Shown here piece by piece: positions 60,101 to 64,000 of a stretch of 64,000 bases of DNA. Position 1 is the first letter of the stretch, and each line of letters opens with the position of its first letter. Position numbers and translations under genes: made by a program. Source of the stretch: a virus; the IMG/VR virus record IMGVR_UViG_3300036823_000324, positions 1 to 64,000 of that record, one strand, 5' to 3'. Below the pieces are notes generated by a model. That model was not told the DNA's origin. It saw nothing but the letters and a program-made list of their open reading frames with translations, and searched no databases.

Positions 60101-61198
60101 CTAGGCGACCGACGCGAAGGTGGCGCCGCGCCAGTCGAGGAGGGCCGTGCCCCACTCGTAGCGGATCTTCCACCAGATCTCGTCGTATTTCCCGGTGTAG
60201 GGGTCCGAGCCGCCAAGCACGTTCCGCATCCCCGGGTCTTTCAGGAATATGTCGGGGGTCTCGATCCCGTTCAGGAACCCCACCCCCATCACCGGCGCCA
60301 GCTGCGGGTCGGCGAACGTGTACCAGTCGTTCGCGTCTTCGAGGTAGTCCTCGACGACGTAGTCGGTGATCGCGGCCAGGACGTTGTCGCCGCCTTTGCC
60401 GTGCTCGATCGTCGTCCCGTCGACCCCTTCGGACCCCGCGGGCTGCGGGACCGTCGTGGAGTTGAGGATCCGCCGGATCGTCATCTCGAGCTCGGCGGGG
60501 ATCACCGACAGTTTCGGACGCAGGCCGATCCGATTGCCGCTGAATTCCTTCTGGATCCGCATCTTGATGACGGCCTGGGCGAGGGATTCCTCTTCGAGCG
60601 CTTCCGAGAGGAGGTTGCCGTGTTCGGCCGAGAACACGGCGTCGCCGTCGTAGGCGTGCGGATTCGCACGGATCGCCCGCCAGATGTCTTTCGACAGCGT
60701 GCGGGCGGCGGAGCGCCCGAAGGCGGCCGGCCGGTCGCGCAGCTGGTTCAGGTCGTCGTTGATCAGCGCCCGTCGGCTGAGCGAGAATTCGCGGCCGAAG
60801 GTTTCGACCGAGCAGCTCGGGCCGACGATCTGTTCGATCTGGGAGTCGTGGTATTCGCCTCCCTCGGGCACCGGCAGCAGATCTTCCATCTCGCTGACGC
60901 GGACGAAGTTGATCGGCTTGAAGTCGGGCACGTTGTAGATGCGCGAGTACCGGCGCCAGTTGCTGGTCTCCTCGCGGTATGCCCACATGAGCCGCTTGGT
61001 GATTTTGTCGTCGAGGTACGTGGCGAAGTCGGACGTGGTGCCGGACTCCCGCAGGACCTCATCGTCGGAGGAGATGGCCTCGTCGAAGGTGATGCCCGCC
61101 TCCTGGAGGCGCCCCTCGTCGACCTGCCGCCTCTGCATGTAGGCCTCGAAGAGCTTGACCTCTCCTGGCCACTGGTTGCTGTACTCGCGGAATTGCAT
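60101..61198 (-). CDS. Major capsid protein (Mu gpT-like)
   Basis: TTSDF, VPDFKP, V.EGGEY, TFGREFSLSRRALINDDL, F.AEHGNL, FLNG.ETP, DWRG. Confidence 0.92.
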   Translation of the reverse strand: MQFREYSNQWPGEVKLFEAYMQRRQVDEGRLQEAGITFDEAISSDDEVLRESGTTSDFATYLDDKITKRLMWAYREETSNWRRYSRIYNVPDFKPINFVRVSEMEDLLPVPEGGEYHDSQIEQIVGPSCSVETFGREFSLSRRALINDDLNQLRDRPAAFGRSAARTLSKDIWRAIRANPHAYDGDAVFSAEHGNLLSEALEEESLAQAVIKMRIQKEFSGNRIGLRPKLSVIPAELEMTIRRILNSTTVPQPAGSEGVDGTTIEHGKGGDNVLAAITDYVVEDYLEDANDWYTFADPQLAPVMGVGFLNGIETPDIFLKDPGMRNVLGGSDPYTGKYDEIWWKIRYEWGTALLDWRGATFASVA

Positions 61199-61231: not shown

Positions 61232-61621
61232 TTATTCCTGTTTACCCGCGAACTGCGGCAGGATCTTCACCCACATGAATCCGGTCTTCGGCGCCTGGGT
61301 GGCGTCAGTGGTCTCGCCGGCACCTGGCACGGCGACGATGGTCGCGAACGGCCGCGTGCCCGTGGCGGGCGCGCCCCCGTAGGCGCGGCGCGTCAGGGCC
61401 TTCGTCGAGTTGTTGATGTCGACGACGTCGCCCTGGACCGAGCTGGTGATGAAGGGGATCACCCACTCCTCCTCGACCATCAGGGCGTACAGTTCGTTTT
61501 CGGCGGGTGAGGTCTCCGGGATGCCGTGGATGTTGTGCTCCACCATCGGCACACCGGAGGTTCGCGCGGCCGCCGCTTTCACGGTGATCCGCTGGCCCGA
61601 CCCTATGTGGTTCAGTGCCAC
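61232..61621 (-). CDS. Capsid cement/decoration protein (DUF2190-like)
   Basis: NHIGSGQRITV.A.AART SG-like start; directly before the capsid gene. Confidence 0.75.
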   Translation of the reverse strand: MALNHIGSGQRITVKAAAARTSGVPMVEHNIHGIPETSPAENELYALMVEEEWVIPFITSSVQGDVVDINNSTKALTRRAYGGAPATGTRPFATIVAVPGAGETTDATQAPKTGFMWVKILPQFAGKQE

Positions 61622-61633
61622 GTCTTTAACTCC

Positions 61634-63976
61634 TTAGATCTCGAGTTCTCTGTCGATCTGTTCGTCGAGCGGCGCCCCGTTGCCCTTGCTCTTGGCCTTG
61701 GGGGTCGCTCCGTCGCCGGTGTCGATCGGCGCTTCGGTCATCGTCTCGCCGGCCTCGCTGACCCGAGACTCGCGCACCGGCCCTTTGGGGGCCGGAGTCG
61801 TCGATCCGGTGCTCGACCGGATCTCGTCGCGCTTGGCTTTGATCGTCCGTTCGACCGTCTCGCGGGCGATCTGGTTGCCGTCTTTGCTGACCTGGCCGCT
61901 CTCGCTGTCGACCTCGGCCTCGAAGTAGGCGTCGTGGAACTCGGCCTTGAGCTCGCGCACCGTCGCCTCCTTGAAGTTCGCGGCGTCGATCAGCTCGTTC
62001 GCGATCACGCGCTGCTCGGACTGGTCGAACTTCCGCCGCCAGGAGTCGTCGTTCTCGCGGAGGGCCTCGGCGAGCCGGACCTCGTGCTGTTCGTTGGCGA
62101 CGGCGACCGCGGTGCGCACCGCCTCGCGCAGCATGCCCTCGGCGATCTCCTCGGCCTGGGCCGAGACATCGTCGCCGGCGTCGCCCTCGGCGAACCAGTC
62201 GTCGCCTTCCCATTCGCCCTCGCCCGCCTCGAGCAGATACTCCTCGGCGAACTCGTCGTCGCCGAAGTCGCCCTCGGCGAACGGATCGTCGCCCTCCTCG
62301 AGGTCGTCGCCTCCCGGGACGAGATGGATCTTGTCGCCGGTGCCCGTCGGGACGTCGATGTCCCACTCGCCGAACTGCTCGTCGGTCTCGATGGGCACGG
62401 GCTCCTCCTCGCGGTGGCGGGAGCGGCGATGCAGACGCTCGGCGTGCTGGAGCATCTCCCGGGCGCCGCGGCCGCGGTGATGACCCGACCCGTCGTGGGC
62501 GCGGATCTCGTACTTCCCGCTCGGGTGGTGGTAGCGGATCGTGTGCGTCGCGGTGCGGCGGACGTGCGTGGGGCCCTCGCGGTGGAAGCCGAGGCGCTCG
62601 AGGTGGTGGTGGAGGCGGCGCGGTTTGTGGTGGCCGGCCTCTTCGAACTCCTCGCCCTCGCGGACGCGGTGATGCCCGCGCCGGTGCATCTCGTGCACCA
62701 GCTTCGGGTCGTGCGCGGACAGTCGATCGAGCGTCGCGCCGGCATCCTCCCGCGTCATCTGGTGGTCCCCGTCGGGACCTTCGAGGGCGTGGCCCATGTC
62801 GTTTTTGACGACGTGGCCCTTCTTGCTGGTCCCGACCGCCACGGCTTTGTAGGGACCGCGCAGCTGCGCGACCTCGGCGTCGGGGCCGGCCGGGCAGGCA
62901 CCGGCCTGGCCCATCCGACCTTTGTGCTGGACGATCGCGGTCGGCGGCACGTCGCGGAGCCGGTGCCGGGCGTGCGGCCGGGTCATCGCCTCCTCCATGT
63001 GCTCGCCGTCGTCGAGCCACTCCACCGATTCCTCCTCGCGGTGGCGCCGGTGGTGGTGGTCGAAGCGCAGCTCGTGCCGGTCGCCGTGGCGGCCGTGAAG
63101 CTCGTGGGCGGCGCGGAGCATCGCGTTGTGCCCACGCCCGCGGGCGTGCTCGCCGCGGCCGCCCTTCACCGGGTGGATCTCCCAGTTGCCCTCGTGGTCG
63201 ACCTGGGCGGTGTGGTGCCCGGCAGATCCACCGAAGGTGGCCATGTGCCGGTTGCCCTCCTTGGTGAAGCCGAGGCCCTCGAGATGCGCGGTGCCGCGGC
63301 CGCCCGGAGATCCTTTGCCGCCTTTGCCCTCGAGGCTCTCGCCGCCGCCGCGACTCTCGGCCGGCGTGCCGCCGAGCTGCTGGGCCTCCTCGAGCTCAGC
63401 CTCGCGCTCCTCTTCCGCCACCTGCTCTTCGACCTGGGCCTCCATCAGCGCTACCACCTTTCCTCCTGCTCCGGCCTTGGTCACCCAGTCGACGGAGCCG
63501 ACGTTCTTGATTGCCTCGACGATTCTCGCGCGCCGGCCGTCCATCTGGCCTTCGCGGCTGGAGCCGCGCGCGTTGATCGAGACGCCGAGCAGTTCGGGGT
63601 CGTGCTCGATCATGTTCCACAGCCATGGCTGGCTGACCGACGCGATGCCGACGATGCACTGGCGGCCCGCCTCGTCCGTGGTGACTTCGGTCTCGCGGAT
63701 GCGGCCGATCAGTTCCTGCACCGGCCGCGGCAGCCCTTTGAGTTTGCGCTCCACTTCGGGCGACTGGTGGTTCGCGTACATCTGGGCACCGACGAAGGAC
63801 TCCGCCGCCTCGCGGAGCACGTCCGCGGTGTAGTAGTGGCTGTCCCGTTTGTTGCCGAAACCCTCACGGATCAGGACGATTTTGACGAGACCGCCGCGAC
63901 CGTCGGGTTCCGCGGTCCCCTCAAGGATTCGCCCGTCGTCGACGATCGCGCCGTTCTCCACCAAAGTTCCTTCCAT
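61634..63976 (-). CDS. Capsid maturation protease / cassettes / scaffold fusion
   Basis: Protease aa 1-180 (YYTADVL, YANH, GVSI, SVDWVT.AGAGG); His/Arg-rich middle; acidic coiled-coil C-terminus. Confidence 0.85.
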   Translation of the reverse strand: MEGTLVENGAIVDDGRILEGTAEPDGRGGLVKIVLIREGFGNKRDSHYYTADVLREAAESFVGAQMYANHQSPEVERKLKGLPRPVQELIGRIRETEVTTDEAGRQCIVGIASVSQPWLWNMIEHDPELLGVSINARGSSREGQMDGRRARIVEAIKNVGSVDWVTKAGAGGKVVALMEAQVEEQVAEEEREAELEEAQQLGGTPAESRGGGESLEGKGGKGSPGGRGTAHLEGLGFTKEGNRHMATFGGSAGHHTAQVDHEGNWEIHPVKGGRGEHARGRGHNAMLRAAHELHGRHGDRHELRFDHHHRRHREEESVEWLDDGEHMEEAMTRPHARHRLRDVPPTAIVQHKGRMGQAGACPAGPDAEVAQLRGPYKAVAVGTSKKGHVVKNDMGHALEGPDGDHQMTREDAGATLDRLSAHDPKLVHEMHRRGHHRVREGEEFEEAGHHKPRRLHHHLERLGFHREGPTHVRRTATHTIRYHHPSGKYEIRAHDGSGHHRGRGAREMLQHAERLHRRSRHREEEPVPIETDEQFGEWDIDVPTGTGDKIHLVPGGDDLEEGDDPFAEGDFGDDEFAEEYLLEAGEGEWEGDDWFAEGDAGDDVSAQAEEIAEGMLREAVRTAVAVANEQHEVRLAEALRENDDSWRRKFDQSEQRVIANELIDAANFKEATVRELKAEFHDAYFEAEVDSESGQVSKDGNQIARETVERTIKAKRDEIRSSTGSTTPAPKGPVRESRVSEAGETMTEAPIDTGDGATPKAKSKGNGAPLDEQIDRELEI

Positions 63977-64000
63977 GCGGGCGAAGGTACTCGCACCTGC

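Follow-up and report, generated by a model that had tools for sequence, protein, structure and literature searches.

Why should a phage gene for a head protease and its scaffold carry three histidine-rich modules between the two? The question is raised by a gene on the minus strand (61634..63976) of a 64,000-nt stretch of DNA, here called the window, which comprises bases 1-64000 of a 75,084-bp IMG/VR virus record (IMGVR_UViG_3300036823_000324) from an uncultured soil phage. The gene's open reading frame (ORF) of 780 amino acids (aa) reads as a protease, a variable linker with the three modules, and a scaffold; it rests on the ORF list, the translation, a G+C content at third codon positions (GC3) of ~0.9 throughout the coding frame, and 47 homologues that share both ends. 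A sequence-only reading of this DNA had proposed that the modules, which span 62402-63382 (exactly aa 199-525 of the 780-aa ORF), are cargo that is packaged along with the scaffold and then cut free inside the head. In the reading that we favor, the modules are released by the protease and retained in the head as internal proteins, a proposal to which we would assign a probability of about 0.5. Coordinates are those of the window unless stated otherwise, and all features described lie on the minus strand.

The N-terminal domain (aa 28-178, 63443..63895) is supported by computation as a prohead protease of the T4 gp21/assemblin fold, which agrees with its earlier designation as a capsid protease. 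When given an alignment of homologues, AlphaFold2 (AF2) modelled aa 28-178 and aa 600-725 of the protein with predicted local distance difference test (pLDDT) scores above 90 (over aa 30-170 in the protease region). The best PDB match of the protease domain by Foldseek was T4 gp21 (5jbl, E 6.7e-4, probability 1.0), and VIA-align superposed the two with Z 10.7 and a root-mean-square deviation of 2.8 over 123 residues, herpesvirus assemblins being next at Z 6-8. The domain also matches the head maturation protease family phrog_15531 (6e-14), and a tblastn search retrieved a Stenotrophomonas phage gene annotated as "prohead core protein protease" (E 5e-7). Among 31 homologues, H70, E179 and S133 (within GVSI) are invariant and H47 is nearly so. 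Sequence identity to T4 gp21 is only ~18%, and an hhalign comparison of the two was weak (E 0.0012, probability 19%) and placed the His region ambiguously. The domain ends in LME↓A (aa 177-180, 63437..63448; the arrow marks the predicted cut here and below). The invariance of E179 in the 31-sequence alignment, together with the presence of hydrophobic-x-E-[A/S/T/N] directly after the last protease strand in most of 126 family proteins, fits a self-cutting site, and we regard LME↓A as the probable one.

The other end of the protein holds a conserved helical scaffold domain (aa 600-725, 61802..62179), for which AF2 predicted long helices with pLDDT 94-98 and which is recognizable in homologues by, for example, an EFHDAYFEA block. 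It is preceded by an acidic linker (aa 526-600, 62177..62401, net charge -27 by composition) in which candidate cutting motifs occur every 7-16 residues after aa 561. A C-terminal tail (aa 749-780, 61637..61732) contains a conserved A-x-LD-x3-D-x2-LG helix according to the homologue consensus (helix 769-777 in the AF2 model), and possibly forms the contact with the capsid shell. The 47 homologues, retrieved by a search of 5.8 billion clustered proteins, are 431-775 aa long and share ~175 N-terminal and ~180 C-terminal residues and nothing between. With a gp21-fold domain at one end and a long-helix scaffold at the other, the architecture is that of a protease-scaffold fusion with a gp21-type protease. 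A sequence search of the PDB with the family profile yielded low-complexity and coiled-coil noise only.

Proteases of the gp21 family cut after Glu (A-x-E in SPN3US, S/A/G-x-E in phiKZ, and after Glu in T4 gp21), trim off their own C-terminal portion, and reduce the scaffold to small fragments (PMC5694885, PMC10052503). Cutting after Glu had also been proposed for the present protein on account of motifs that precede its modules and recur in its scaffold part, and the scaffold motifs named (LMEA, LLEA, LREA, LAEA, FKEA, VRES, VSEA and MTEA) are all present. When the pattern hydrophobic-x-E-[A/G/S] was counted against shuffled sequences in the 64 ORFs that we called on the contig, only three were enriched: the 780-aa protein (20 observed vs 5.1 expected, or 21 vs 5.6 when Tyr and Trp are also counted as hydrophobic), the major capsid protein (7 vs 2.0, at residues 18, 28, 33, 40, 51, 112 and 199), and the 1158-aa protein encoded upstream (20 vs 5.5). 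The same motif is 3.49-fold enriched in the post-protease parts of 113 non-identical relatives (698 vs 200 expected), where the control patterns gave 1.08 (reversed motif), 0.91 (Asp version) and 0.67-1.33 (other residue classes after Glu). Across the loci of 54 relatives, the protease-scaffold gene had a ratio of 2.99, the second gene downstream of it (usually that of the major capsid protein) one of 1.69, and distant genes one of 1.00. As a positive control, the count applied to T4 marked gp21 itself (5.6x) and the known gp21 substrates gp67 (5.0x), gp22 (3.3x) and gp23 (2.65x), and did not mark gp18, gp19, gp20 or SegD. These motif statistics support the proposed specificity well, and we consider it likely that the protease cuts at hydrophobic-x-E-[A/G/S] sites.

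If cut as predicted, the linker and scaffold would yield fragments of 5-66 residues plus three long pieces; these three, stretches of 111-132 residues that lack the motif, correspond to the modules. The motifs LEEA, MEEA and FEEA were found before the modules as described in the sequence-only reading, and the module endings RHREEE, HRVREGEE and RHREEE are likewise present in the translation. From motif position, the predicted cuts are LEE↓A before module 1 (aa 195-198, 63383..63394), MEE↓A before module 2 (aa 327-330, 62987..62998) and FEE↓A before module 3 (aa 444-447, 62636..62647). Against these three hydrophobic-E-E-A motifs, shuffles of the linker lead one to expect 0.08-0.12 (p <= 2e-4, for a pattern chosen after seeing it). 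The piece containing module 1 would comprise aa 198-329 (62990..63385; 132 aa with 17 His and no internal motif) and consist of a Gly-rich lead-in, a domain at ~aa 229-316 that is paralogous to module 3, and a short acidic tail. The module 2 piece (62639..62989; aa 330-446, 11 His) ends in VRE↓G and FEE↓A, and would thus comprise aa 330-440 or 330-446 (111-117 aa). The module 3 piece, aa 447-561 (62294..62638; 115 aa, 17 His), would combine a compact alpha/beta domain, predicted by AF2 at aa 451-523, with a 38-aa acidic tail that runs to LEE↓G.

The modules had been described as basic and rich in His and Arg. Their richness in these residues was confirmed: 13.6% His and 11% Arg in module 1 (aa 199-316), 9.7% and 10.6% in module 2 (aa 331-443), and 20.5% of each in module 3 (aa 448-525). 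The term basic, in contrast, suits only the module cores, with net charges (K+R-D-E) of +1, +3 and +9, as the motif-bounded pieces 1, 2 and 3 are near neutral at -5, +5 and -1.

Modules 1 and 3 proved to be homologous, as had been suggested, with 39% identity over 89 columns by BLASTP (E 5e-7) and 36 identical positions in a separate alignment of the two, and module 2 matched neither of them by the same program. An AlphaFold model of module 3, made with module 1 as the sole aligned sequence, consists of a helix, five strands and a helix over aa 451-523 (mean pLDDT 78.7, predicted template modeling score 0.65), and its core, at a pLDDT of ~90, speaks for a folded domain and not the disordered linker that had been named as the alternative. 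On the strength of this model, modules 1 and 3 are two diverged copies of one real compact domain. Foldseek retrieved nothing for module 3 among known folds at E <= 0.001; the best VIA-align match was the TriTu immunity protein (Z 5.9), followed by frataxin and type III chaperone-like chains (Z 4-5), all of which lie within the tool's stated noise. Searches for homologues of the modules found none in Pfam (E <= 1 or 10) or PHROGs, known effector families included, and no usable match in the ESM Atlas; module 2 had no family, structure-atlas or sequence match. In an exhaustive HMMER search of 1.84 billion representative proteins the modules matched only their own protein, and the phage genome holds only the two known copies of the module 1/3 domain. 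The idea that modules 1 and 3 are HicA-like RNases found no support: the phage genome has no match to PF07927 at E <= 10 while control genomes do, no Pfam family matched the single modules at E <= 10, and no HicA chain appeared in the PDB profile search, Foldseek or VIA-align. The HicA domain has a dsRBD-like alpha-beta3-alpha fold, and the module 3 model has five strands between its helices.

In the favored reading, one polypeptide would do the work of both T4 gp21 (protease) and gp22 (scaffold). A long linker would connect a Ser/His protease of the gp21 fold with a helical scaffold, whose C-terminal part would bring the chain into the assembling procapsid. With the shell closed, the protease would cut after Glu in hydrophobic-x-Glu before Ala, Gly or Ser; the cut at LME↓A would detach the protease, others would reduce the acidic linker and the scaffold to fragments of 5-66 residues, and still others would shorten the capsid protein by ~51 residues and dissect the neighboring 1158-aa protein. 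The linker would have taken up three extra modules, two of them copies of one compact His-rich alpha/beta domain, which would be loaded at scaffold copy number, released as separate 12-14 kDa pieces and most likely kept in the head as internal proteins, and the small acidic pieces could leave after the cuts, as in T4. Once there, the modules might act through His-dependent DNA or metal binding, or as effectors. A simple scan for in-frame ATG, GTG or TTG codons with a Shine-Dalgarno-like match of at least 5 nt at 4-10 nt spacing, which does not exclude leaderless or weak starts, found none inside the gene; each scaffold chain should accordingly bring a protease and the full set of three modules with it.

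Several points weigh against this proposal. Since the three modules have no homologue, conservation cannot vouch for their function. The cut pieces would be near neutral unless their His residues are protonated, which weakens the idea that they condense DNA. Module 2 is predicted to be mostly unstructured, only its helices at aa 409-434 being modelled with moderate confidence. That the modules contain no internal motif is not significant by itself, with ~1.9 expected in aa 186-530 including the boundaries, and motif depletion therefore does not serve as evidence that the modules are protected from cutting. Amphipathic helices also suit hydrophobic-x-E-A and may add to the enrichment in the scaffold part. 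Lastly, whole scaffolding proteins, larger than these modules, leave P22 procapsids intact, so the size of the modules is no proof of their retention.

The alternative that survives best, and which we would call a serious though minority possibility, accepts the same cuts and assigns the modules no cargo function: they would only lengthen or bulk the scaffold core, or be evolutionary passengers, and would leave the head or be degraded afterwards. The modules are orphans and near neutral as pieces, most T4 core fragments exit the head (PMC5694885), and the linker of relatives tolerates almost any content and length. The part of the protein that follows the protease has a median length of 267 aa in 115 family members, and at 599 aa is the second longest here; the variable linker itself measures ~420 aa here, and ranges in relatives from a plain acidic spacer of ~110 aa to 430 aa. 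Besides plain acidic spacers, the relatives' linkers contain CxxC...CxxC zinc ribbons (P0007, P0011, P0016, P0027 and P0029), poly-His repeats, or a basic module of 55 aa. The three nearest relatives (P0005, P0006 and P0009, with proteases 62-70% identical) carry this 55-aa module and 2-4 copies of a poly-His repeat of ~35 aa, which from 10 aligned copies reads HxHHHxH-x-S-[MF]-G-x-G-x-H-x-H-x-H-H-x(3-5)-G-E-x-H-x-H. The repeat matches no Pfam family at E <= 1 and looks like a metal-binding unit. We also considered whether the present modules might be diverged copies of this repeat, which was rejected: a hidden Markov model of the 10 repeats scored the modules no better than 500 shuffles, and only the richness in His is shared.

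Against a filler role stands the compact predicted domain that modules 1 and 3 have kept in two diverged copies with 36 identical positions, which suggests selection on the fold. In addition, His-rich inserts recur in the three closest relatives without detectable homology to those described here, and the 55-aa module of the relatives' linkers also exists as an independent small protein.

The 55-aa module further bears on whether such cassettes are exchangeable between phages, as the sequence-only reading had proposed. In the linkers of relatives it is 65% identical (E 3e-18) to aa 726-779 of the 1158-aa protein of this phage, where it sits between FDE↓S and VAE↓A, and it also occurs in stand-alone small proteins of 121-227 aa. 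This is direct evidence for two alternative places of a module, the protease linker and the neighboring polyprotein; it concerns the 55-aa module, not the three modules described here. Support for the proposal thus comes from one module that is common to the 1158-aa polyprotein, the linkers of three relatives and stand-alone proteins; the three His-rich modules were found in no other sequence, so that their exchange between phages is not observed. A related expectation was that homologous linkers would carry variable inserts bounded by motifs. The inserts between the conserved ends are variable as expected, and every complete zinc ribbon is followed by a motif within ~6 residues, but inserts are not always bounded one by one: in P0005 and P0009, motifs enclose the poly-His repeats only as a group. 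The 55-aa module itself (W-I-x-x-A-I-K/R-H-x-G-x-L-H...G-K-x-G-x-R-A-R-L-A; L002 2154-2348, P0051 aa 726-790, also P0005, P0006, P0009 and P0053-P0057) is a stand-alone or terminal unit in the small proteins, one of which also contains PF18905.

A more tentative extension of the favored reading is that, in this family of gp21-fold head proteases, the linker serves as a natural plug-in site: any small domain placed there between hydrophobic-x-Glu↓Ala motifs would enter every capsid in as many copies as the scaffold, be released by cutting, and accompany the DNA on delivery. The His-rich alpha/beta domain might then be a new kind of head protein, either injected or associated with DNA, with a charge or a metal binding that changes with pH. 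We hold this as a speculation that may well fail.

The modules could instead act before any cut, as metal-binding regulatory or oligomerization elements that hold the protease inactive or cross-link the scaffold until the shell is complete. Many relatives do have inserts at this position, directly after the protease domain, that are rich in metal ligands and unrelated in sequence (P0005, P0006 and P0009 with His repeats, the five relatives listed above with CxxC...CxxC). Most family members, however, have no such insert (any CxxC in 10/115, His-rich in 4/115), so one is not needed for control of the protease, and the predicted cut sites that flank the modules fit release better than permanent regulation. 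We regard a role before the cuts as improbable.

Finally, a frameshifted or chimeric assembly, or a wrong frame left open as happens in high-GC DNA, could yield a false stretch of the Arg, His and Gly typical of off-frame translation, but this is very improbable: GC3 is 0.8-0.97 and G+C at second positions is low in the gene's frame in every 30-codon block, all modules included; a 42.9-kb contig from a second assembler, probably from the same soil sample, covers 61500-64000 at depth 11 with zero differences and no indel; and the fold of module 3 is predicted with confidence, module 1 being its diverged paralogue in the same frame. The sequence is present in one DNA run only, which is from soil, and no RNA run is listed for it. 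With a G+C content of 67%, the phage likely has soil actinobacteria as hosts.

Compared with known systems, this one would work like head maturation of the T4 type with internal proteins, and differs in its single protease-scaffold chain with built-in extra domains. In T4, phiKZ (gp175) and SPN3US (gp245), the protease cuts off its own C-terminus, the scaffold is cut small, and small extra proteins enter the core and are released by this protease (PMC5694885, PMC10052503, PMC3012670); in phiKZ and SPN3US, such proteins are the inner-body and ejection proteins. About 1000 molecules of internal proteins are kept in the T4 head (PMC3012670). T4 shares with the present phage the protease fold and the kind of cutting site, here a predicted one, in which the cut follows Glu and P3 is hydrophobic or small; counting such sites singles out known substrates in T4, and three head proteins in this phage. 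The T4 protease gp21 and scaffold gp22 are, however, encoded by two genes, and the T4 cargo proteins (IPI-III and Alt) by separate genes, being addressed to the core by an N-terminal targeting peptide of ~10 residues that the protease removes; these proteins are found in the mature head and are ejected along with the DNA. The modules described here are internal segments of the protease-scaffold chain, and being covalently part of it they would need no address tag and would have the copy number of the scaffold.

The gene layout itself has parallels elsewhere. P2 gpO, lambda C/Nu3 and Mu I/Z also have an N-terminal head protease and a C-terminal scaffold in one frame, and in lambda the decoration and capsid genes follow (C, D, E) as they do here. 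Lambda and Mu differ in that the scaffold alone is also made from an internal start, of which our simple scan for ribosome-binding sites found none here, and lambda gpC is a ClpP-type protease, not one of the gp21 fold. We know of no folded extra domains between protease and scaffold in P2, lambda or Mu.

A further comparison is with the polyvalent proteins of Iyer et al. 2017 (PMC5512222), which are virion-associated multidomain proteins that combine several recognisable effector or anti-defence domains, whose module content varies among relatives, and for which processing and delivery together with the DNA have been proposed. The neighboring 1158-aa protein, with its peptidoglycan-binding module, fits this description. 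In polyvalent proteins the cargo is anchored on MuF, portal or other domains and self-processing by other peptidase domains is proposed (PMC5512222), whereas here the anchor is the head protease-scaffold, the proposed cutter is the head protease, and no effector domain is recognisable. No specific account of a His-rich scaffold, or of cargo on a protease-scaffold chain, came up in literature searches.

If the cuts and the retention are true, cargo that rides on the scaffold itself would be a second route for loading the head, beside the T4 targeting peptide. Proteins packaged in the heads of uncultured phages could then be predicted from sequence, by looking for a gp21-fold protease together with enrichment of hydrophobic-x-E-[A/G/S], and the same simple arrangement could be used to load capsids with many copies of foreign proteins. 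Taken together, the orphan domain rich in His and the poly-His repeats in the closest relatives suggest that histidine has a selected role inside these capsids. Should the modules be only filler, the probable substrate set and the cutting motif would still have been mapped for a large uncharacterised family of head proteases, in which related phage contigs reach 75-135 kb.

The genes around the protease-scaffold gene form a head gene cluster, with the minus-strand order of a terminase-like gene, a portal gene, the genes of a 777-aa and the 1158-aa protein, the protease-scaffold gene, and the genes of a 129-aa decoration protein and a 365-aa major capsid protein. The major capsid protein (60101..61198) matches Pfam Phage_capsid_4 (1.3e-38) from aa 50 onward, and also Mu gpT-like models. 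Its first 51 residues (61046-61198) contain five candidate cut sites (LFE↓A, VDE↓G, LQE↓A, FDE↓A and LRE↓S), the last of which ends where the Pfam capsid domain begins. From this arrangement, the segment is probably a short propeptide that is cut into pieces and off, rather than a long delta domain. The head decoration protein (61232..61621; phrog_122, 4.8e-6) has no motif (0 vs 0.6 expected).

The 1158-aa protein is encoded directly upstream of the protease-scaffold gene and beyond the end of the window, at positions 64046-67522 of the contig (L002 1047-4523), and has a peptidoglycan-binding domain. From its motifs, which follow an extended consensus of about A/Q-L-x-E↓A and would give pieces of ~82-118 aa, it looks like a second head polyprotein. 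The predicted pieces include a PG_binding_1 module (net charge +20, 14 His), a Cys-rich piece, a very basic piece (net charge +28), and the 55-aa WIxxAI[KR]HPG...RARLA module. The 777-aa protein, whose gene lies between those of the portal and the 1158-aa protein (contig 67724-70057, L002 4725-7058), has a weak C-terminal match to HTH_24 (0.0011) and is not enriched in the motif (3 vs 3.0 expected).

The start of the protease-scaffold gene is probably to be corrected. The annotated ATG (63962-63976) has no ribosome-binding site, and a GTG five codons downstream has AAGGAA 5 nt upstream of it. Translation from this GTG at codon 6, which is the start in a database gene call (P0004), would give a protein of 775 aa, and the sequence context suggests that this is the true start. 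Lastly, a distant relative (L055, IMGVR_UViG_2873314349_000003) has a 1185-aa ORF that starts with the protease domain and in which protease, scaffold and capsid protein may be fused, as in PHROG 4523 ("major head and protease protein").

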